From NCBI GenBank assembly GCA_004322365.1, contig SCTS01000007.1, forward strand, positions 18,266 to 82,265: 64,000 bases of DNA, read 5' to 3'. Below are positions 7,711 to 33,091 of this stretch, one piece after another. Source of the DNA: Patescibacteria group bacterium (lineage in GTDB: Bacteria > Patescibacteriota > Minisyncoccia > Phycocordibacterales > Phycocordibacteraceae). Within the stretch, counting starts at the first letter, position 1. Every line of letters begins with the position of its first letter. The notes below the pieces were generated by a model. The model ran no database searches, had not been told where the DNA came from, and was given only the letters and a program-made list of their open reading frames with translations. The position numbers and the translations under genes are program-made.

Positions 7711-10700
7711 TTAGTGCGAGCGAGTCGCAAACAAGCCACCTGCTGGAAGACCTGAGACACCGTAACCGTTTGTCCAGTCCTGATCTGCACGAACCGCTGT
7801 GGTTGTGGAGTTAGGAGACCAAACGAATACGTTATCCGATGAACTCACACCTGAAGCCGAAGCAATGAGGAGTGGGTTTGCGCCAACTGCAGCTGCAGTT
7901 GATGGGAACGCTGAAGATCCGAGAAGCTTCGTTGTTACCGACGCACCTGTAGCACTACCCGAGATCGAGCCACGGACCTCGAAGTATCGAGTACCGCCTG
8001 CAGGAATCTGGATAGATGTTGCTGTACCAGCTGATGTTGTAACACCAACTACTACATTGCCTGTACCTGGAACGGTTGCATCGTCAGTTGCCTGGAGGTC
8101 ACCGCTCGTGCTGATACCCGAAATTGCTTGCGAGTATGCAGAGTCGCTGAATCCGTAGATCGTGACGTTTGTAACCGAAGCAGTTGTTGTTGCGAGGTTA
8201 AGCGCAAACTGTGTGATGCCAAGGGGACCCTTTGCATCAGCAGTTACCTTGAATCGCATAAGGCGACCATCGGTAAGACCCGTTGTGCCGTTGATTGTTG
8301 AATCAAGAGCGAACGTTGGGAACGACTTCATGATGCGAACACCTGATGAAGCCGATGAACCTGATGGGTAGATAGTACTGCCTGAAGAAGCACCAGTACC
8401 TTCTGAGTTCAAGTAATCAACTGCCAAAAGGTGACCAGAGAATGCAACAGCTTCACCAGTGCCGACATTGTTGAGGTCAGCCTTGATGGTAAGAGTTACA
8501 TCTGTGTTCTTTTGAAGTGAGACTATTGAAGTCAATGTTGAAGTTGCCGAAGCGTTCGAACCTGAGAAGTATGCCTCGCCTACCTTTGTTGCACCATTCC
8601 AAATCGTTGCCTTTACGAGGTCAGACGATGAAGATGAAGCTGTGTTGGTAAGAGTAAGGCCGACTTTCGTCAAGTTGACTGCTTCGTTTGAAGCACGGAA
8701 CTTAAGTGCGCCGACAACTACATCAGTTGAGCCAGCTGAAACGAGCGCGAAGCTTGGGCTTGACGCATCGAGAGCAACTGTAGCAGAACCGGCAGCGACG
8801 GTCATCGTGACTCCAGAGTCAGATGTGTCAGTGCCTGTGATTGTTGTACCTGAAGTTGCACCTGTGAAGGTGTAGGCAGAAGCTGCACCTGCATCCCATG
8901 CCCATGTACCATTGTTCGTTGCCGAACCAGAGACATTACATTTGATACCGATAGTCTTAACTGTACCTTTTGCAACAGTAACAGGGTTATCAAGTGTGAA
9001 TGTCTGAGTTGCACCTGTTGAACCTGAAGGATTTACAACATTCGAACCTGTCGAAAGCTGTGTTGTACCGTCGTACGCTGCACAAGCTGTGAGTTCAGTC
9101 ACCGCTGCGCTACCACCGAAGGTGAGCGTAGTAGGAATTGAAGAGAATCGTACATCTTCACCTGACTGCGTTGCATCGTACTGGAAGTTTACAAACAAAG
9201 TTTGTGAGCCACCAGCAGTGATGTTCTGCGAAGCAGGAGATGTAGCGAGACCAACTGCAACTGCACCTGCCTTCACGGTCATGGTGTTCATAGTGAATGT
9301 ACCATTCGATGAAAGTGAGATTGTGTTGCCAGTTGTTTCACCCTTGACATTGGTCCATCCAGACGAAGGAACTGTGGTGACAATATATGTACCACCGTTT
9401 CCGATGTTTGAAGCAACCTTGCCACGGAGTGTGTAGACACCTCTTCCAACCTTGTAGGTGATTGAGTCAGTGAAGGTAGCTGTTTGAGTCGTTGCTGATG
9501 CATATACAGCATCAACAGGACCTGCAACTACTGCACCGTTCTGATCAACAATCGTAAGATTGGTGAGGAGGCCAGTACCTGAACCAGTTGTTGAAGCGAT
9601 TGTGAAGACAGTTGACTGAACAGTCATTGCCTCACCCTTCAAGTCAACTACATAACCGCCGAGAGGCTGATTAGGAAGGTTGATTGCGATGTTCTGCGCA
9701 GGAACTTCGTTTGCCTTGCCGATCGATGTAATCGATGCGCCAGAGACAGTTACCTGAGTAGCGTATACGAACGGAGTTCCGCTCGTAATGGTGATCGTAC
9801 CGCGTGATGAAGGAACAGCAGATGAACCTACTGCTGGCGAAACGCCGTAGCCGTAAGTCTCACCTGTTGCGTAGATATCTGTAGTCTTGTCAACATCGAA
9901 GACAACAGTGCGGTTAGCCGCACCTGCGCCAATGATGTCGTACTGAACATAGAGATCAACTTGATTTCCCTTTGGAATAACTACACCTGAACCGAGGTTC
10001 GTGTTGTAGTATTTTCCGTCTGAAGAAACAGTCGCTGGGTATGCTGTTCCGTTAACAACTGTCATTACATTTGCAATGTCAGTAGCTGATACGGAGCCAG
10101 TTTGATTCCAACGGATGCTCTTGAGGCGGAGATCCTCAGCAGATCCCGCTGTAAGGCGAAGACCTGTTGCCTTGAATGCGGTTGTACCAATTTCCTTCGT
10201 TTGGTTCGAGTTTGAAGCGAACGCATTTGAAGTATTCAAGGTAATTGAACCAACAGTCAAAGTTGCATTGTTTGTGTTATGAGCGCCGACGATTGGAAGT
10301 GAGCCAGAAACGGTTGCTGAAGTGTTAACTGCAACAAGCGCGAGTCCTGGAGCTTCACCTGTGTACGAAGTGAGTGACGAAGCCATGTTTCCTGCAATGA
10401 GGAAAGTCTTTGTCGTTCCCTTTGCAACAGTGAAGGTACCACCGACAACTGTCTGGTGATTTGAATTCAATGTCTTTGCGATACCAAGCTGCAAGCCAGT
10501 TGACTCATCGATGAGGACGATACCAGCAAAAGCTGCATCCTGACCGAGTCCGTCTTTCTGGACCGTAACTCCGTTCACCACTACATCGCCATCAGCGCCT
10601 GCAGTGAGTGTGAAGCGAGTAAACGGAACGCGCGATGCACCTTGTGGTGAAAGCGAGTTTGCTGGTTGTGTACCTGCTGCGACAGCAAGGCCAGTACCTG

Positions 10701-11208
10701 TTGGTGTTGTCACTACTGGAGTGGAACCACCTGAAGTCTTGCCGAATGCTGCGCGAGAGATCGCACCGAAGTAGCCAGCTGCAGGAGAAACTCCTGCTGC
10801 CTTCTGCCATGCGATAACTGCAGTCACAGTCTGGGAACCGAAGTAGCCAGTTGCGCCTGCTGGAACCGAGTAGCCAGCTGCAATGAGTGCCTTCTGAAGA
10901 CAAGTTACATCGTCACCTTTCGAGCCAACCGTGAGGTTTCTCGTGAAGGTACAACCGCCTGTCATTGAGCCGCCAGTCGAGCCCCCTGTTGGAGCTGTCC
11001 CATTGAGAGACGCACTAACGTTCGCGATAGTCGAAGCGTCAGCACCGAATGACTGCAAGAGAGAAACGATAGCTGAGATTTGCGAACTTGTGAGCGTTGC
11101 GGCTTCTGCCTTAGACGCTGTGAAAGTGAATGCAAATCCAGCTACCAACGAAACTGCAACGACGATCGCCGCAACTTTCGTGAGAGAACTGTTTACAATT
11201 GAAGTCAT
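7711..11208 (-). CDS. large secreted/cell-surface protein: N-terminal anchor, peptidoglycan-binding (PG_binding_1-like) domain, then a Thr/Ser/Gly/Val-rich beta-repeat region of about 1000 aa
   Basis: 1165-aa ORF. Signal/anchor AAIVVAVSLVAGFAF. PG-binding motif …DDVTCLQKALIAAGY…GYFGSQTVTAVIAWQKAAG. Long low-complexity T/S/G/A/V-rich stretch. Confidence 0.8.
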   Translation of the reverse strand: MTSIVNSSLTKVAAIVVAVSLVAGFAFTFTASKAEAATLTSSQISAIVSLLQSFGADASTIANVSASLNGTAPTGGSTGGSMTGGCTFTRNLTVGSKGDDVTCLQKALIAAGYSVPAGATGYFGSQTVTAVIAWQKAAGVSPAAGYFGAISRAAFGKTSGGSTPVVTTPTGTGLAVAAGTQPANSLSPQGASRVPFTRFTLTAGADGDVVVNGVTVQKDGLGQDAAFAGIVLIDESTGLQLGIAKTLNSNHQTVVGGTFTVAKGTTKTFLIAGNMASSLTSYTGEAPGLALVAVNTSATVSGSLPIVGAHNTNNATLTVGSITLNTSNAFASNSNQTKEIGTTAFKATGLRLTAGSAEDLRLKSIRWNQTGSVSATDIANVMTVVNGTAYPATVSSDGKYYNTNLGSGVVIPKGNQVDLYVQYDIIGAGAANRTVVFDVDKTTDIYATGETYGYGVSPAVGSSAVPSSRGTITITSGTPFVYATQVTVSGASITSIGKANEVPAQNIAINLPNQPLGGYVVDLKGEAMTVQSTVFTIASTTGSGTGLLTNLTIVDQNGAVVAGPVDAVYASATTQTATFTDSITYKVGRGVYTLRGKVASNIGNGGTYIVTTVPSSGWTNVKGETTGNTISLSSNGTFTMNTMTVKAGAVAVGLATSPASQNITAGGSQTLFVNFQYDATQSGEDVRFSSIPTTLTFGGSAAVTELTACAAYDGTTQLSTGSNVVNPSGSTGATQTFTLDNPVTVAKGTVKTIGIKCNVSGSATNNGTWAWDAGAASAYTFTGATSGTTITGTDTSDSGVTMTVAAGSATVALDASSPSFALVSAGSTDVVVGALKFRASNEAVNLTKVGLTLTNTASSSSSDLVKATIWNGATKVGEAYFSGSNASATSTLTSIVSLQKNTDVTLTIKADLNNVGTGEAVAFSGHLLAVDYLNSEGTGASSGSTIYPSGSSASSGVRIMKSFPTFALDSTINGTTGLTDGRLMRFKVTADAKGPLGITQFALNLATTTASVTNVTIYGFSDSAYSQAISGISTSGDLQATDDATVPGTGNVVVGVTTSAGTATSIQIPAGGTRYFEVRGSISGSATGASVTTKLLGSSAFPSTAAAVGANPLLIASASGVSSSDNVFVWSPNSTTTAVRADQDWTNGYGVSGLPAGGLFATRSH

Positions 11209-26654: not shown

Positions 26655-27239
26655 TCAAAGTCCACTCTCAGAAATAGCTTCGTTAATAAGGCGAACAAGT
26701 GTATTGCGAGATTCACGCACTGCTTTCAAAGTCGGCATATCGTACGAAATATCTAAAAATAACTTCATTATGGGATCCTCCCGCACATACCCTAACGCTG
26801 CGAGTACCCGAAGCACCGCAACGCATTCCGCTTCAAGTACATACTCCTCATCGATGTTCGGAAGAATGCGAAAGAATCCAAACAGTGCACTAAAAAGATA
26901 TGGATCACTGCCTTCTCCCCGAATAAACTGCCTAACTATTGTGATAACACGGGCCGTAACTTCTTGAGCTTTTGTATTACCTGAAAGCGCAAAGTGAGAA
27001 TTCTCAGTTTTTGTAGCGCCGATAACACGCCACACATCACGACCTTTCACCAACACAAAAACGCCCGTTGTCCCAACCTGTAGGTGCGGGCGAAGCTTTG
27101 ATCGCTCTTCACGGGCACTTTTAGCGAGAGCAGAAACAAGTCCTAACGAGTCCGTATATATAGAAATACGCACACTACCCTCTCCGGCTGAGCGCCTAGC
27201 AACTATAATCCCTCGAGCTGTTACTTCACGAACGGACAT
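26655..27239 (-). CDS. recO: DNA repair protein RecO
   Basis: 194 aa: an N-terminal OB fold (…ARGIIVARRSAGEGSVRISIYT…) and a C-terminal helical domain. Confidence 0.75.
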   Translation of the reverse strand: MSVREVTARGIIVARRSAGEGSVRISIYTDSLGLVSALAKSAREERSKLRPHLQVGTTGVFVLVKGRDVWRVIGATKTENSHFALSGNTKAQEVTARVITIVRQFIRGEGSDPYLFSALFGFFRILPNIDEEYVLEAECVAVLRVLAALGYVREDPIMKLFLDISYDMPTLKAVRESRNTLVRLINEAISESGL

Positions 27240-30200
27240 TGAACCTAAATGTCATTCCATCAAACACCAATTCACTAGTGCCACCGCCAATCTCATACGC
27301 TGACAACTTAGCGGTGGTACTGAGTACCTCCCAGTGTTTCTCCAAAAACCTTTCAACTTCTGCATCAGAGGAAACAACGAGTATTGCGGGGTCGTGCGGT
27401 GTAAGACCCGCGCCCTTACGAAGTTCTTGTATAAAGCGTAGGACCTCTCGTACATTTCCCTCTTCCTTCAGAGCATCAGAAATACTTGTGTCGAGGAGTA
27501 CCTCTCCTTTCGCCACAGACTCATCAATCACCACCTCCTTCACATTTAACTCATCTTTAATAAGTTCTAAAAGTTCTCCCTTTCCTGAAAGCTCCGAGCT
27601 GAAAGCTGAAAGTTTCTGAAGTGGTTGTCTCACCTTTATATCCGCCCTCTGCCGAGCTTCTAATCCCAATGAAACAATGCGTCGCACCTCCTCCATGTCG
27701 TGAAGCAGTTTCTCATCAATCGAATCTATATGAGGCCAAACACACAAGTGCACACTTAGGGGTGCGCCACTCTTTTTAACTTTTTGATATGCGTACTCAG
27801 CAGTAAATGGAATGAATGGCGCCGACACTTTTGTAAATTCTTCGATAATCGTTCGGAATGTTCGAAGTGCGTCCCCTGTATTTGAACCACCCTCTTTTAA
27901 ACGATCCCGCGAACGCCTCAGATACCATGTTGAAAAATCTTCAACAAACGAAAGTAAGGGGCGTGTCGCCTTATCAAGCTCATACGATTCCATTCCTGCG
28001 GTGACCTCTACAACCGTTTGATTCAAGCACGCAACTATCCACCTATCAAGCACATGCTCAGATGAACGAGCCTTCAGGTCATTCACAGTGAGGTCAGCGT
28101 AGAGCTCGTAGAAAGAAAGCACATTGAGGAATCTGCCAATAAGTTTTGAGGCAATTTCCCCCACCCCTTTTTCAGAGAAGTTCAAATCTTCCGCACGCAT
28201 CAACGGCGAAGCTAGGAGGTAATAACGGATAGCATCAGCGCCATATTTCTCTAATACGGTGACTGGATCAGGGTAATTTTTCAAACGTTTCGACATCTTT
28301 TGCCCATCTTCTGCCAAAACAATACCGTTCACAATTACATTCTTATAGGTTGCTCTGCCAAAAAGTCCGACACCTAAAACGAGGAGCGAATAAAACCAAC
28401 CCCTTGTTTGGTCTAATCCCTCAGCAATAAAATCCGCTGGGTAGCCACGAGATTTCTTGAGCCACCCCGGCTTCGGGTCGAACCTGTCTTTGTTTTCGAA
28501 TGGATAATGATTCTGAGCATACGACATTGAGCCCGACTCAAACCAGCAATCAAAAACATCATGTACACGCTCCAACCTTGTACCATCGGTGTCTATAAGC
28601 ACCACGTCATCGATGTATGGACGGTGATAATCGAGTTCATAATTTTTATTATGAGGGAGAGGAATGAAAGGAAGACTAACTATCTCGGCTGGCTTGAGCA
28701 TCGCGTGGTCGGCAAGAACAGATAGTGCTTCTTTTGCAGTGCTTCCTTTTGAAACTGCCACGAGTGCAGCTACTGGCCAGCCATGAGAAACAAACAATAT
28801 ATTTTTTCCTGCATATTTGTGTTCACATTCATAGAGAAGCGCTCCAACGCGACGACGCATATCATTAATGCTTTCGCCTTCTTCAGGACCTTTTTCAAAA
28901 AGTGGTGCTATTTCCTTAAAATGCTCTGCCCACTCACTGTCGGGACGACCATTGAAGACACCGTGATTGTATTCATTCAAACGTGAATCAGTCGATACAG
29001 CCGACACTTCAAGACCAAGAGTTTCTCGTGCTATCTCAGCAGTTTGTGTTGCCCTCAGAAGCTCCGAATGGATAATGATATCTATGTGTACTCCTAAATT
29101 TTGAGTAGATTTTTTTGCCTCCGCCTTTCCTTTTTCAGTAAGAGAGACGCCATCATCAGGCTTATAACTTATGACTTTTTTAACATTCTTCTCTGACTCT
29201 CCGTGACGCATTGCAAAATATGTATTGCCTGATTTTTTCGTGTATGACTTTAGTTCATCCAGTGAGCCAATAAAAACATTCTCTTTAGCCTTGTGGTTAC
29301 GCCACACGGGAATTGGTGCACCCCAATACCGAGCACGTGAAATTGCCCAATCCCGGGCATTGAGAAGCCAATTTCCGAACCTCTTCTCCCCTACTTCTTT
29401 GGGCACCCAATTAATGTTTTTATTTTCCGCTACAAGTTTGTTTTTAAACTTCGTGACTTCCACAAACCACGACGACGAAGCGTAATTTAACAACGGAGTA
29501 TCACACCGCCAACAATGCGGATACGAGTGTATTATTTTTTCTTTAGCAAAGAGCAATCCTTTTCCTGCAAGATATTTAATGACCGCAACATCTGTGGATT
29601 GCGAATCGTCTTTCGGTTTCGCCTGAAGTCCTTTGAAATCTGAAACGACATCGACAAAAAACCCATCCTTATCGACGTGATGCACTATCGGAATCCCTTC
29701 TTTTTGTGCGAGCTCTAAGTCTTCTGCACCAAACGCAGGAGCAAGATGCACTAACCCTGTTCCACTATCCATCGTCACATACGGAGCGTGATACACCTTC
29801 CATGCTTTTTCTTTGCCTTTTATATTGTGATCAGCAAAATACGAAAACGGAGGCTTGTATGATTTACCAACAAGTTCACTCCCAAGAAATTCTTTTTCTA
29901 CTTCATAGTCAACTTTAATTACTTCCAATCTGTCTTTAGCGAGAATGTATTTTTCATTTCCTGAGACAATTTTTACATAGGTCATATCTTTATGAACTGC
30001 AGCAGCCATGTTGCCAGGCAAGGTCCACGGCGTTGTTGTCCACGCAAGAAGAAAAGTTCCGGGTTCATCAACAAGCTCAAGTTTTGCGGTGACAGAAATA
30101 TCGGTAATGTCTTTGTATCCTTGCGCTACTTCAAAGTTAGAGAGCGTGGTGCCACAACGAGGGCACAAATGCATCGCTTTAAATCCTTCATATACCAATC

Positions 30201-30714
30201 CCTTTTTATGAAGATCATTAAATGCCCACCATACGCTTTCGGTGTAGGTGGCATCCATCGTCCTATAGTCATTCTCCATATCTACCCATCTACCGAAACG
30301 AGGAATGATAGCTTTCCAGTCATCCGAATAACGGAGGACTGCTTTGCGAGCCGCTTCATTAAATGTCGCAACCCCTAGAGTTTCAATATCTCGTTTCGTT
30401 GCAAGTCCGAGCTCTTTCTCTATCTGATTCTCTAGAGGTAATCCATGGCAATCCCAACCCCAACGGCGTGGTACATGGTAGCCCTGCATCGTTTTGTAAC
30501 GCGGGATAGCATCTTTAATGGTGCCCGCGAGAATGTGACCGTAATGTGGCAAACCTGTGGCAAATGGAGGACCATCATAAAAAACAAACTCTCCCTTTGG
30601 AGCCTCTTTGGAAAGGGTTTTTTCAAAAATCTCGTTTTTTTGCCAAAAAGCTAGGATTTCTTCCTCACGCTTGGCAGGCTCGCTTTTAGTATCTGCATCC
30701 ATAAACTTCATCAC
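27226..30714 (-). CDS. ileS: isoleucine--tRNA ligase (type 2) with an embedded histidine-phosphatase (PGAM-like) domain
   Basis: 1162 aa. HIGH region (PHYGHILAG), WCISR-like AISRARYWGAPIP, KMSKRL. Residues about 496-683 (YFAMRHGESEKN … FVSHGWPV) form a complete RHG histidine-phosphatase domain inserted before DCWFESGS. Confidence 0.9.
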   Translation of the reverse strand: MMKFMDADTKSEPAKREEEILAFWQKNEIFEKTLSKEAPKGEFVFYDGPPFATGLPHYGHILAGTIKDAIPRYKTMQGYHVPRRWGWDCHGLPLENQIEKELGLATKRDIETLGVATFNEAARKAVLRYSDDWKAIIPRFGRWVDMENDYRTMDATYTESVWWAFNDLHKKGLVYEGFKAMHLCPRCGTTLSNFEVAQGYKDITDISVTAKLELVDEPGTFLLAWTTTPWTLPGNMAAAVHKDMTYVKIVSGNEKYILAKDRLEVIKVDYEVEKEFLGSELVGKSYKPPFSYFADHNIKGKEKAWKVYHAPYVTMDSGTGLVHLAPAFGAEDLELAQKEGIPIVHHVDKDGFFVDVVSDFKGLQAKPKDDSQSTDVAVIKYLAGKGLLFAKEKIIHSYPHCWRCDTPLLNYASSSWFVEVTKFKNKLVAENKNINWVPKEVGEKRFGNWLLNARDWAISRARYWGAPIPVWRNHKAKENVFIGSLDELKSYTKKSGNTYFAMRHGESEKNVKKVISYKPDDGVSLTEKGKAEAKKSTQNLGVHIDIIIHSELLRATQTAEIARETLGLEVSAVSTDSRLNEYNHGVFNGRPDSEWAEHFKEIAPLFEKGPEEGESINDMRRRVGALLYECEHKYAGKNILFVSHGWPVAALVAVSKGSTAKEALSVLADHAMLKPAEIVSLPFIPLPHNKNYELDYHRPYIDDVVLIDTDGTRLERVHDVFDCWFESGSMSYAQNHYPFENKDRFDPKPGWLKKSRGYPADFIAEGLDQTRGWFYSLLVLGVGLFGRATYKNVIVNGIVLAEDGQKMSKRLKNYPDPVTVLEKYGADAIRYYLLASPLMRAEDLNFSEKGVGEIASKLIGRFLNVLSFYELYADLTVNDLKARSSEHVLDRWIVACLNQTVVEVTAGMESYELDKATRPLLSFVEDFSTWYLRRSRDRLKEGGSNTGDALRTFRTIIEEFTKVSAPFIPFTAEYAYQKVKKSGAPLSVHLCVWPHIDSIDEKLLHDMEEVRRIVSLGLEARQRADIKVRQPLQKLSAFSSELSGKGELLELIKDELNVKEVVIDESVAKGEVLLDTSISDALKEEGNVREVLRFIQELRKGAGLTPHDPAILVVSSDAEVERFLEKHWEVLSTTAKLSAYEIGGGTSELVFDGMTFRFNVRS

Positions 30715-30756
30715 ATACTAACATTGTCACCCAACAGTAATTCAATAGGAGAATAT

Positions 30757-30936
30757 TTAGCCCTGTCTCACTCTCCCACTACCGTCACACCGTATGCAAG
30801 ATTTTTCTTCAAAAACATTGCGTAACCCAAGTGCAGCAAGGAGCTCTTTACCCATTCCACTACAAGAAGGACACGGCTGAGTTGTTTCACTATAATCTCT
30901 ATAATTAAATGATGTTGTTGGTTGGCTTTCGGACAT
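30757..30936 (-). CDS. hypothetical small protein (59 aa) with two DnaJ-type CxxCxGxG zinc-finger motifs
   Basis: MSESQ…PCPSCSGMGKELLAALGLRNVFEEKSCIRCDGSGRVRQG. Lies 42 nt upstream of ileS on the same strand and is not in the ORF track (<60 aa). Confidence 0.35.
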   Translation of the reverse strand: MSESQPTTSFNYRDYSETTQPCPSCSGMGKELLAALGLRNVFEEKSCIRCDGSGRVRQG

Positions 30937-30950
30937 ATATTTTAGTTAAA

Positions 30951-30990
30951 AGAAAACCCCTTCTTTCGAAGGGGTTTTGTATGTTTTTGT
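30951..30990 (-). terminator. bidirectional terminator hairpin AAAACCCCTTC-TTTC-GAAGGGGTTTT
   Basis: 11-bp stem with a T-rich tract on the minus strand. Confidence 0.6.
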
Positions 30991-31315
30991 AATTTGTTCT
31001 TATGCGTTCACTACAAAACCCCTTCGCTTGGAAAAGCGCTTTGTAATCTTAATGATGGTCGTACCTCGTGCCATGTGTTTAAGAATATTCTAAAAATGAA
31101 CACTGTCAAGCTGAAAATGGAATCTCTATGCCTGACTCTTTTAATCGAGCTTTTGCACCAGCTACTATTTTCCCCAAATTATTTTTAAGAACCTCAGATG
31201 AGCGATTTAAATTTATTCTTGCACCGGGATAACCGCGCCTCCCTAACCCATCTTCTCTTAACCCTTCGTTGTATGTCATACCAATACATACTACTGAGAC
31301 TATGAGCAGGTTTCA

Positions 31316-33091
31316 CTACATCGCCTCAGGGGCACGGATACCTAAAATAGTGAGGCCATTTTGCATCGTTAATGCAAAGACTCGCGTTAATGCGACCTTG
31401 TAAGGAGACAAGGTATCTGTAGAATCAACAATTTTCCCTGTTGCATACCAACTATTGAATGCGGAAGCCAGCTCTGTCAAAAATGTGGTTATGTGATGCG
31501 GTTCACGATCCACTTGTGCTCGCTCTACTATTTCAGGAAACCGATAGAGTGTTCGCTCTAGCTCGCTAACCTCAGGAATGAGTTCGCTGATTTGATATAT
31601 CAAATCACTTGCAAGCGCGGGTATTTTTTCTGCTCTCGCTTTTCGAAGGACTGCCCGCGCTCGCACATAGGAATATTGTAAATACGGACCTGAATCACCT
31701 TCAAATGAAAGCGAGGCCTCAGGATCGAAAATAATATTTTTTCCTGTCGACTGTTTCAAAATGGAATATTTAATTCCAGCAATAGCAACTGAATCAGCAA
31801 CATCTTGTTTTATTTCTTCAGACTCAAATACACGCCCCTCCATTTTTGCTAGTGCCTTAGCGCGCATGTCTTCTATCAATGACTCGCCCGTTATGATGTT
31901 GCCCTTTCTTGATGACATCTTTCCGCTCGTCAACTGCATCATGCCGAATGCCGTGTGCGTGTACTTCCCTGCCATATCAGGCCACAATTCTGCCATAGCA
32001 GCCTCCACCACTTTGAAATAACCATCCTGCTCCACTGCGATTGTCGTCACGTTGAGATCAAATGGGAACGATTGTTGTTTCATCTGGGCCAACCCCAACT
32101 CTTTTGCTTCATAGGTCGGCGTTCCTTTCGAAGTGACAAATACACGAGTGTGAAGCCCTACCTTTTCCCCCTTAAATACTGTGGCTCCGTCACTCTCTTC
32201 AAAAATTCCACGAGACTTTCCCTCTTCTACAATTTTGAGACCTACACGCCACGCATTACTTTCAAAGAAATATTCATCGAACTTCGTTCCAAGAACTCTA
32301 TACAAATCCTCAAAATGCGCGAGCGATGCTTTGCGACCTTTGTCATATATATCTTGAAGCGACGCATCGCCTTCGTAGAGTCTTTTGTTAATTGAATCAA
32401 TCTCAGCTTTCGAAGCGGGATCATCTTCATAGGCAGTATTTCCAATAACATATGCGTCACCGAGGTCCTGAATATTTGAGGGATTAAGGTTATTTTTCTG
32501 CAATCCCCAAATTCCTTTCGCCACATGCGGACCAATGTCTCCCTGATAGTTGGCTCGGTATATGTCAGCGCCCGACCATTCAACAAGACGAGAAATGGCT
32601 TCTCCAACGGTAGTCGACATTAAGTGCCCAATGTGGAATGGCTTAAAGGGATTTGGCTGTGAGTACTCAACAATTATCTTCTTTCCTTTCAGGGTTGCAT
32701 TACTACCCCACGACTCCCCGCTCTCAGTAATTGCTGAGATACTTTCAGAAAAGAACGAGCGTGTGAGATGAAAGTTAATGAATCCAGCCCCTGCTGTTTC
32801 TATTTTCTGAACTCCATCTATAGAACCAAGACTTTGCACAATCTCCTCGGCAAGCACACGGGGGTTCTTCCCAGCTTTTTTTGCAACAGCAAGCGCAATG
32901 TTCGTTGAATAATCCCCGTGAGATAAATCCCCTGGGTGCTCCAAAACAACCACACCTTCAAGACCGAGGGTCGTGAGTGCTCCCTGTATTGCTTCAATAA
33001 TTCGCTCAGAAATCATACTTTCGTCATCATACCTCGCCAAATACTGGTACAGAAAGACCCCATTCTCACCTCTGAAACCAATTAAGGACAC
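31316..33091 (-). CDS. argS: arginine--tRNA ligase
   Basis: HIGH motif PNPFKPFHIGH and KMSK-like region. An alternative start at 33016 (MISERIIEAIQ) fits the usual N-terminus. Confidence 0.9.
   Translation of the reverse strand: MSLIGFRGENGVFLYQYLARYDDESMISERIIEAIQGALTTLGLEGVVVLEHPGDLSHGDYSTNIALAVAKKAGKNPRVLAEEIVQSLGSIDGVQKIETAGAGFINFHLTRSFFSESISAITESGESWGSNATLKGKKIIVEYSQPNPFKPFHIGHLMSTTVGEAISRLVEWSGADIYRANYQGDIGPHVAKGIWGLQKNNLNPSNIQDLGDAYVIGNTAYEDDPASKAEIDSINKRLYEGDASLQDIYDKGRKASLAHFEDLYRVLGTKFDEYFFESNAWRVGLKIVEEGKSRGIFEESDGATVFKGEKVGLHTRVFVTSKGTPTYEAKELGLAQMKQQSFPFDLNVTTIAVEQDGYFKVVEAAMAELWPDMAGKYTHTAFGMMQLTSGKMSSRKGNIITGESLIEDMRAKALAKMEGRVFESEEIKQDVADSVAIAGIKYSILKQSTGKNIIFDPEASLSFEGDSGPYLQYSYVRARAVLRKARAEKIPALASDLIYQISELIPEVSELERTLYRFPEIVERAQVDREPHHITTFLTELASAFNSWYATGKIVDSTDTLSPYKVALTRVFALTMQNGLTILGIRAPEAM

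Follow-up and report, generated by a model that had tools for sequence, protein, structure and literature searches.

The stretch of DNA analysed here, referred to as the window (64,000 nucleotides of contig SCTS01000007.1, positions 18,266 to 82,265, from assembly GCA_004322365.1 of a Patescibacteria group bacterium), carries on its minus strand an ileS gene between argS and recO. This open reading frame (ORF; 27226-30714, GTG start) encodes a complete type-2 isoleucyl-tRNA synthetase (IleRS) of 1162 amino acids. An original prediction, made from the letters alone, had given the protein this length and had seen in it, at 28666-29229 (amino acids 496-683), a histidine phosphatase domain embedded between AISRARYWGAPIPVW and the DCWFESGS segment. 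Both statements held: the domain sits at this place in an otherwise complete IleRS (Table 1), and it belongs to a phosphatase subfamily whose other members we found inside, or usually directly beside, class Ia aminoacyl-tRNA synthetases (aaRS).

An intact type-2 IleRS interrupted by a histidine phosphatase

Against the NCBIfam model TIGR00392 the window IleRS scored 884.2 bits (cut-off 621.4), in two match stretches that flank the insert, and Pfam recognized tRNA-synt_1 on both sides of His_Phos_1 in addition to Anticodon_1 and DUF5915. The HIGH and KMSKS signatures and the Thr-rich CP1 editing motif are present (Table 1), as is the second CP1 editing motif, GTG.VH.AP..G..D, of which G318, G320, H323, A325, P326, G329 and D332 are invariant in 118 homologues. 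With nothing missing from its synthetic site, its CP1 editing site or its anticodon-binding part, the IleRS would be expected to keep working as a normal synthetase. By the same type of membership test, the protein is neither an IleRS with an N-acetyltransferase domain (ileS_w_GNAT, NF040702; 308.6 bits, cut-off 1999) nor a MupA/MupB-type mupirocin-resistance enzyme (NF000257 and NF000258; 686.7 and 688.2 bits, cut-off 1900).

The full-length protein was modelled with AlphaFold2 on a 118-sequence alignment (pLDDT 91.4, pTM 0.85; pLDDT 87-97 in the insert region). The top Foldseek matches of this model were Priestia megaterium IleRS2 (8C9D, E = 3.9e-86) and yeast IleRS (8WND, E = 3e-82), with type-1 IleRS structures ranking below them. 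The window protein has the same fold and domain order as the type-2 bacterial enzyme (P. megaterium IleRS2, 8C8V/8C9D) and the cytoplasmic IleRSs of yeast and Candida (Foldseek TMt 0.83), i.e. Rossmann fold, CP core, CP1 editing domain, CP2, CP3, anticodon-binding and C-terminal domains; it also shares with type-2 IleRSs the CP2-3 linker motif ARDW.(I/V)SR.RYWG, HIGH, KMSKS and the editing motifs. However, solved IleRS chains are about 920-1060 amino acids long and 31-34% identical to the window protein, and none has an enzyme domain of ∼190 amino acids in CP3.

The extra material was evident from motif spacing: W464-G-A-P-I-P and D722-C-W-F-E-S-G are 258 amino acids apart, compared with 65-75 amino acids in insert-less relatives, so that ∼185-195 residues have been added, in line with the about 190 predicted. 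His_Phos_1 (PF00300) matched amino acids 501-662 of the full protein with E = 7.9e-31 (107.7 bits, cut-off 21.7) and the excised insert with E = 2.8e-32 (112.4 bits); a chance match is excluded because of these E-values. Modelled alone, the insert folded as a discrete domain (pLDDT 96.7, pTM 0.92), for which Foldseek returned a probability of 1.00 and TM values of 0.70-0.80 to more than 50 solved members of the histidine phosphatase family. Pfam detected only His_Phos_1 in it, and no Hint/splicing, homing-endonuclease or transposase domain; its GC content (0.40-0.46) is the same as that of the rest of ileS. Nor is the segment a variant of the IleRS editing domain, an outcome that would have spoken against the original prediction.

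The full branch-1 signature that had been read from the sequence is present as well, with RHG at residues 503-505 and the second His, H644, in VSHGW. Together with R554 and E581 these residues are conserved in the 118 homologues as listed in Table 1, and S550, G529, E614 and R622 are likewise (near-)invariant. This conservation persists while the insert sequences as a whole diverge: their identity to the window insert averages 41%, versus 64.5% for the host protein in the same homologues. The dN/dS of the insert was 0.05 against homologue P0004 and 0.17 against P0002. Judged from these sequence comparisons, the insert is under purifying selection to stay an enzyme, and phosphatase activity is predicted.

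Which phosphatase is it? By sequence and fold, the nearest solved proteins are PspA, PhoE, GpgP, the riboflavin-pathway HFP and CobC. The phosphoserine phosphatase PspA of Hydrogenobacter (4IJ5), Geobacillus PhoE (1H2E/1EBB), Mycobacterium GpgP Rv2419c (4PZ9/4QIH) and the alpha-ribazole phosphatase CobC (6E4B) have the same fold as the insert (TM 0.70-0.80; 0.75-0.80 for PspA 4IJ5/4IJ6, PhoE 1H2E/1EBB and GpgP 4QIH), belong to the same class of ∼200 amino acids without the C-terminal tail of cofactor-dependent phosphoglycerate mutase (dPGM), and possess the same R-H...R...E...H set. They are only 22-28% identical to the insert, however, and are free-standing metabolic proteins, whereas the insert subfamily is embedded in or adjacent to a synthetase. 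Structures of dPGMs matched less completely, sequence searches aligning only the N-terminal ∼100 residues. The domain had been called PGAM/SixA-like, which does not apply in the strict sense: the insert stayed below the cut-offs for dPGMs (NF038349 dPGM_arch, 78.7 versus 225; TIGR01258 pgm_1, 41.8 versus 81.7; GpmB, 61.2 versus 261) and for the phosphohistidine phosphatase SixA (TIGR00249, 35.5 versus 74.5 bits, with only insert residues 5-75 matching); the small phosphatases represented by PhoE, PspA and CobC come closest. It also scored below the models for PspA (55.7 versus 350) and CobC (TIGR03162, 68.3 versus 162.9; PRK15004, 46.2 versus 250), and its second-best NCBIfam match, the RNase H/acid phosphatase NF005567, reached 70 bits with a cut-off of 326. 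As every curated cut-off failed, identity as dPGM, SixA, PspA or CobC was ruled out. Within branch 1, the insert is a genuine, self-contained histidine phosphatase of the small type typified by PhoE, PspA and CobC, with intact catalytic residues, and on these model scores it is a distinct subfamily.

In yeast IleRS, the tRNA 3′-end/reveromycin pocket is lined by the CP2-3 linker (453-ARDWNVSRNRYWG-465), directly behind which CP3 starts, and the CP3 subdomain is already known to vary between IleRSs (PMC7955072, PMC7191050). Because these published boundaries put CP3 after a linker homologous to ARDWAISRARYWG of the window protein, the phosphatase is an insertion within CP3. The predicted location in the catalytic core is therefore right in that the insert lies inside the catalytic body, but it occupies the variable CP3 subdomain and not the Rossmann core itself.

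Table 1. Features of the ileS locus in the window; invariance and counts in the synthetase and phosphatase rows refer to 118 homologues.
Feature	Position in window	Strand	Amino acids	Observations
argS, conserved upstream neighbour	31316..33091	-		ORF; synteny in L001, L003, L085, L089, L093
argS-ileS spacer, 601 bp	30715..31315	-		GC 0.35-0.39; position of the free phosphatase gene in other lineages
HYGH (HIGH signature)	30535..30546	-	57-60	Intact by motif scan; H57, G59 invariant, H60 ≥ 90% conserved
WTTTPWTLPGN, CP1 editing Thr-rich motif	30010..30042	-	225-235	W225, T226-T228, W230, T231, P233, G234, N235 invariant
CP2-CP3 linker, ARDWAISRARYWG	29320..29358	-	453-465	Homologous to the yeast IleRS linker
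CP3 N-terminal piece before insert, APIPVWRNHKAKENVFIGSLDELKSY	29242..29319	-	466-491	From alignment with insert-less relatives; two strands and a helix in AlphaFold2
Branch-1 histidine phosphatase insert	28666..29241	-	492-683	Discrete alpha/beta domain; PF00300, AlphaFold2, Foldseek
RHG, H504 predicted phospho-acceptor	29200..29208	-	503-505	R and H 118/118; G 115/118
R554, second phosphate-binding Arg	29053..29055	-	554	Motif S550-x3-R554-x3-T-A; 118/118
E581, predicted general acid/base	28972..28974	-	581	E 115/118, D 3/118
H644, second catalytic His	28783..28785	-	644	VSH644G; 118/118
CP3 return segment, IPLPHNKNYELDYHRPYIDDVVLIDTDGTRLERVHDVF	28552..28665	-	684-721	Near-invariant P687-H688-N689 linker (conservation list)
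DCWFESG, Rossmann fold resumes	28531..28551	-	722-728	D722, W724, E726, S727, G728 invariant
KMSKR (KMSKS signature)	28285..28299	-	806-810	Intact by motif scan; K806, K809 invariant
Recombination tract versus near-identical strain L003 (P0002 contig)	28650..30500	-		Sliding DNA identity; region-wise dS and dN
recO, conserved downstream neighbour	26655..27239	-		ORF; RecO_N in syntenic loci; recO in 60/80 genome loci

The embedded phosphatase is widespread in Patescibacteria

We searched a collection of 5.8 billion sequences, including NCBI, JGI, ENA and Logan assemblies, for the closest homologues of the window protein. The combination of tRNA-synt_1 and His_Phos_1 was found in 119 of the 120 closest (55-100% identity). 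A profile of the insert recovered 493 representative clusters at E ≤ 1e-30, and a genome scan revealed the embedded form in at least 574 species-representative Patescibacteria genomes, the best 80 of which are the basis of the locus-level counts for the embedded form. These 80 genomes without exception belong to the Parcubacteria/Paceibacteria type of Patescibacteria (Nomura-, Kaiser-, Yonath-, Adler- and Wolfebacteria, and RAAC4_OD1_1). In each of the 80 loci the domain was present as a single copy inside one long ORF. The insertion point is common to the related IleRSs, RHG following WGxPIP after 31-32 amino acids in 68 of the 75 loci in which the motif pattern matched. The closed 693-kb genome of RAAC4_OD1_1 has the embedded form too, and the architecture has been in public databases at least since this genome appeared in 2013, with homologues filed under such generic names as 'class I tRNA ligase family protein', 'isoleucine--tRNA ligase' and 'hypothetical protein'. 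Many of the metagenome-assembled genomes with the embedded form (e.g. L007, L008 and L014) are titled 'uncultured Candidatus Saccharibacteria bacterium'; these labels may be generic pipeline names, and the IleRS and insert of these genomes resemble those of Paceibacteria.

That an assembly chimera placed a phosphatase gene inside ileS is practically inconceivable. Nothing speaks for it beyond its prior possibility, and a mis-join is excluded because the same in-frame architecture recurs in many independent assemblies, i.e. in NCBI, JGI, ENA and Logan data from many samples, in all 80 species-representative loci and in the closed genome; moreover, the AlphaFold2 fold is continuous and confident across both junctions.

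Free-standing relatives adjoin insert-less ileS genes

The exhaustive profile search also returned free-standing proteins of ∼190 amino acids that cover the whole domain. Two of these, P0190 and P0166, are encoded in the order argS-phosphatase-ileS-recO-CLIPPER-like, which matches the gene order in the window; the ileS genes specify proteins of 984 amino acids (after a gap of 1 nt) and 931 amino acids, respectively, both without the insert. Downstream of P0216 the N-terminus of an insert-less IleRS starts after 10 nt, P0229 follows argS and faces an insert-less ileS in convergent orientation, and P0176 adjoins a class II (ProRS-like) synthetase. At individually checked loci, 1-10 nt separated the free gene from the ileS start.

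To these we added a metagenome scan with a narrow stand-alone profile, which yielded 50 free high-scoring genes, 45 of them testable by virtue of ≥ 400 nt of downstream sequence. A same-strand ileS N-terminus was located between -60 and +200 nt downstream in 37 of the 45, and within 600 nt in two more; the 28 full-length ileS genes among these neighbours encode 935-1025 amino acids, i.e. insert-less enzymes. Directly upstream, argS was found at 38 of 43 free phosphatase genes. Generic, lower-scoring His_Phos_1 genes had ileS beside them at 0 of 21 loci. Conversely, none of the 80 embedded loci had an extra free copy within 4 kb. The embedded and free forms are thus mutually exclusive in the loci sampled, which is the classical fusion/neighbour signature and argues for a functional partnership. 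The argS-ileS-recO synteny common to both kinds of loci argues that the window gene is orthologous to the insert-less ileS genes.

In five insert-less IleRSs adjoining a free phosphatase (L129, L130, L135, L137 and L147), we noticed a short CP3 with a CxxC...CxC/CxxC zinc knuckle. Insert-bearing IleRSs, including that of the window (28552-29319), are devoid of cysteines in CP3, and insertion correlates with loss of the zinc motif in this comparison, which comprises only the five free-phosphatase loci caught by the motif pattern. The free phosphatases are basic (pI 9.8), as are the neighbouring IleRS (8.4) and ArgRS (9.2); Lys-rich proteomes confound the use of charge as an indicator that the phosphatases bind nucleic acid.

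In the window, the place of the free gene is taken by the argS-ileS spacer. A decayed free phosphatase was considered here and rejected, since hmmsearch at maximum sensitivity with the insert profile gave a best E of about 1, and no Rfam family reached its gathering score in the spacer (best BTnc231, 29 bits versus 80.4). At the same position, two small ORFs (57 and 59-60 amino acids) are called in L003 and L093, and one frame of the window spacer has two DnaJ-like CxxCxGxG motifs (CPSCSGMG...CIRCDGSG). On the other side of ileS, the recO ATG at 27239 overlaps the ileS end by 14 nt (27226-27239), suggesting translational coupling. The order argS-ileS-recO-CLIPPER-like-proS-like is kept in most related loci.

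Tandem copies, additional sites and valyl-tRNA synthetase

Several IleRSs depart from the single CP3 copy. Two tandem CP3 copies are present in P0157, P0195, P0169 and P0197; a copy lies between DxWFxSG and KMSKS in P0131 and P0140, and one follows KMSKS in P0140, P0184 and P0193, P0140 being present in six assemblies. The domain also occurs in valyl-tRNA synthetase (ValRS). P0263 is a bona fide ValRS (1538 amino acids; 849 bits, cut-off 704) with two copies, at amino acids 441-625 and 915-1101, and P0121 is a ValRS N-terminal fragment of 1161 amino acids with at least four tandem copies; the ValRS phosphatase copies cluster together in the domain tree. RHG is kept whether the domain is repeated in tandem, lies in ValRS or stands free, and hardly any copy departs from the catalytic set; those that do are copy 1 of P0263 (E581→A) and copy 1 of P0131 (E614Q, R622Q). 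A segment of P0214, an IleRS of 1066 amino acids with the phosphatase insert, matches the REP-associated tyrosine transposase model NF047646 (amino acids 326-472, in the CP1 region; 81.3 bits versus 80); this IleRS would then have acquired two insertions of unrelated origin.

Altogether, the phosphatase is found in four arrangements: as a free gene upstream of an insert-less ileS, as one copy in CP3, as two to four copies in CP3 or other catalytic-core loops, and inside ValRS. Every multidomain context that we checked among the 150 best representative hits was a class Ia synthetase. We conclude that in Patescibacteria (Paceibacteria/Parcubacteria) class Ia synthetases have a phosphatase subfamily dedicated to them.

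Loss and recombination of the insert

One homologue with the argS-ileS-recO synteny, P0031 (81% identical), lacks the domain cleanly, and there is no free phosphatase copy within 18 kb of it. P0031 retains the cognate return segment, LPRN...VDVHRPYID, and because this linker is kept, its state fits a secondary deletion. On the same contig (L001), the genes for SHMT, a class II aaRS and an AI-2E transporter are split, suggesting a frameshift-prone assembly or pseudogenisation. As several genes on L001 are thus broken into two ORFs, P0031 is to be taken with caution as evidence of dispensability.

Host and insert have had different histories. Identity in the insert and identity in the host were poorly correlated (Spearman 0.19), and in the pairs window-P0002, P0076-P0117 and P0003-P0007 the hosts are 94-98% identical with inserts only 46-53% identical. 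Conversely, the window insert is 91-92% identical at the amino acid level to those of P0003, P0004 and P0005, the hosts being 83-86% identical. A comparison with the near-identical strain L003 delimited the tract concerned (Table 1): DNA identity was 97-100% in the flanks and the 3′ part of ileS (dS 0.11), 82-93% in the 5′ half of the gene (dS 0.80) and 50-63% in the insert (dN 0.47), with the 3′ breakpoint of the tract at the insert edge. In the comparison with L003 and L093, the N-terminal half of the window IleRS is equidistant from the P0002 strain and the P0003/P0004/P0005 lineage (dS about 0.8). The window ileS is therefore a three-part recombination mosaic, in which the history of the insert differs from that of its flanks.

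Diversifying selection found no support as the cause of this discordance, because dN/dS is low (0.05-0.17), which argues for allele exchange rather than positive selection, and because recombination with sharp breakpoints explains the pattern. A diversity-generating retroelement was set aside as well, as the divergence spans the whole domain and includes indels. The 64-kb window contains no second His_Phos_1 gene as a gene-conversion donor. Homologous recombination in the conserved IleRS flanks would shuffle insert alleles between lineages. Elsewhere in the window, a minus-strand ORF of 1165 amino acids (7711-11208) has as its sole Pfam match a short PG_binding_1 repeat (amino acids 98-141) and is possibly cell-envelope related.

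Discussion

We think that the domain is probably an accessory phosphatase, active and reserved for class Ia synthetases, which acts at the synthetase on a phosphomonoester near aminoacylation. The phosphatase would be kept at the synthetase either by a covalent tether or as a co-translated partner, and its target would be a phosphomonoester on a molecule that the enzyme handles in or beside its aminoacylation site. By the standard two-step mechanism, H504 would attack a phosphate held by R503, R554 and H644, E581 would protonate the leaving group, and water would then release the phosphate. The likeliest substrate class may be small molecules resembling adenine nucleotides, or tRNA with a phosphorylated 3′ end, because the tether sites decorate the ATP- and tRNA 3′-end-binding body of the synthetase and CP3 follows the A76-pocket linker; this assignment is speculative and, although the best candidate, of low probability. 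We know of no activity of the histidine-phosphatase fold on either kind of molecule and, to our knowledge, no phosphatase takes part in tRNA charging.

Several observations weigh against an accessory role at the synthetase. The neighbour statistics lose weight if the argS-phosphatase-ileS adjacency goes back, as it may, largely to a single synteny block that was inherited, and the unbootstrapped neighbour-joining tree of the domain interleaves free and embedded forms and does not separate fusion from fission. At least one lineage, that of P0031, does without the domain, although several genes on its contig are split. Substrate specificity is not transferable by homology, because the curated equivalog models are far below their cut-offs. 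Lastly, the paper on the yeast IleRS-tRNA complex describes no CP3-tRNA contact.

Some of these points would equally suit a housekeeping phosphatase or mutase, acting on phosphoserine, a sugar phosphate or phosphoglycerate, that was fused to or co-transcribed with ileS purely for co-expression. The closest solved relatives (PspA, PhoE, GpgP, HFP, CobC and the dPGMs) are metabolic enzymes acting on small molecules, the window has no other His_Phos_1 domain, the domain can be lost, CP3 is structurally permissive and variable, and the adjacency may reflect one inherited operon. We nevertheless regard such a hitchhiker as unlikely, given the exclusive association with class Ia synthetases in the multidomain contexts checked, the use of at least three distinct sites, tandem arrays of two to four copies and ValRS with the catalytic residues kept, the mutual exclusion of free and embedded forms with free genes only 1-10 nt from the ileS start, the absence of ileS beside the generic His_Phos_1 genes, and the failure of all curated metabolic equivalog cut-offs. 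Regulation, proofreading and hitchhiking on an essential gene had all been suggested initially; of these, the pure hitchhiker is least favoured, since several independent arrangements link the subfamily to IleRS and ValRS. A module for ligand sensing or for structure, which would bind a phospho-metabolite or buttress CP3 and act allosterically on IleRS without turnover, appears very unlikely. The conserved residues do double as ligands of the phosphate, many enzymes have regulatory domains embedded in them, and the missing Cys4 zinc knuckle in insert-bearing CP3 means that the domain might have replaced a structural element; however, retention of H504, E581 and H644 across ∼60% divergence and in nearly all tandem copies exceeds the needs of binding, free-standing forms keep the catalytic residues too, and two to four tandem copies are of no obvious benefit to a sensor.

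The mosaic structure (hosts 97-98% and inserts 46-53% identical in several pairs, with the low rank correlation), the multiple sites, the polymorphism in copy number and presence, and the transposase-like segment in P0214 could also be read as traces of a selfish, intein- or cassette-like insertion that spreads by recombination and is hard to excise from an essential gene. This is hardly credible: the window protein contains no splicing, homing-endonuclease or transposase domain recognized by Pfam, purifying selection is strong and the phosphatase catalytic residues are invariant, GC is uniform, hundreds of species share the position and the gene order, and ordinary homologous recombination in the conserved flanks explains the mosaic. 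A more far-reaching reading, which we consider quite unlikely, makes the phosphatase a built-in repair or immunity enzyme of the tRNA 3′ end or adenylate site. Tethered next to the pocket for A76, it would strip a blocking 2′/3′-phosphate or pyrophosphate from tRNA-Ile/tRNA-Val, or dephosphorylate a toxic phospho-nucleotide or a phosphorylated synthetase. If so, phages, hosts or competitors could cause the lesions with toxins that target tRNA, IleRS and ValRS would be self-repairing synthetases, and cassette exchange together with polymorphism in copy number and presence/absence would bear witness to an arms race; the low dN/dS in the one close pair in which it was measurable speaks against such a race.

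Accessory modules that are either embedded in a synthetase or separate from it are well known from the ProRS INS domain and YbaK/ProX, the AlaRS editing domain and AlaX, and the split ThrRS editing proteins of some archaea. These ProRS, AlaRS and ThrRS modules are aminoacyl-ester hydrolases with a proofreading role, whereas the module in the window has a phosphomonoesterase fold, which is not known to play a part in aminoacylation. An IleRS with an extra, unrelated enzyme domain has a curated precedent in NF040702, which differs from the window protein in having a GNAT fold and belonging to another IleRS lineage; NCBIfam has no curated model for a phosphatase-bearing IleRS. Fusion of a CobC/PhoE-like His_Phos_1 domain to a nucleic-acid enzyme, as in the window, is likewise known from the RNase H/acid phosphatase of the Rv2228c type (NF005567), but there the domain is fused to the C-terminus, not inserted internally, and RNase H takes the place of the aaRS. 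Full-text searches of 8 million papers and preprints returned no account of an aaRS that contains or adjoins a histidine phosphatase, in agreement with the initial impression that no such synthetase had been described. The components and domain accretion in aaRSs are thus known, and the pairing of phosphatase and IleRS is undescribed, widespread and well supported.

Synthetases are among the best-studied enzymes, and the domains they have accreted (editing, WHEP, GST, EMAPII) have repeatedly revealed new biology. Natural controls exist in the form of insert-less orthologues, free-standing partners and multi-copy forms, and the question is testable with recombinant protein. For phylogeny, IleRS is a widely used marker and in Patescibacteria is a recombination mosaic around the insert, which matters for marker-gene trees of these lineages. 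For the biology of these organisms, a whole class of ultra-small bacteria, the tie of a phosphatase subfamily to IleRS and sometimes ValRS, whether by insertion, as a tandem array or through a neighbouring gene coupled in translation, implies that class Ia aminoacylation is linked to a phospho-substrate or a regulatory step not recognised so far.

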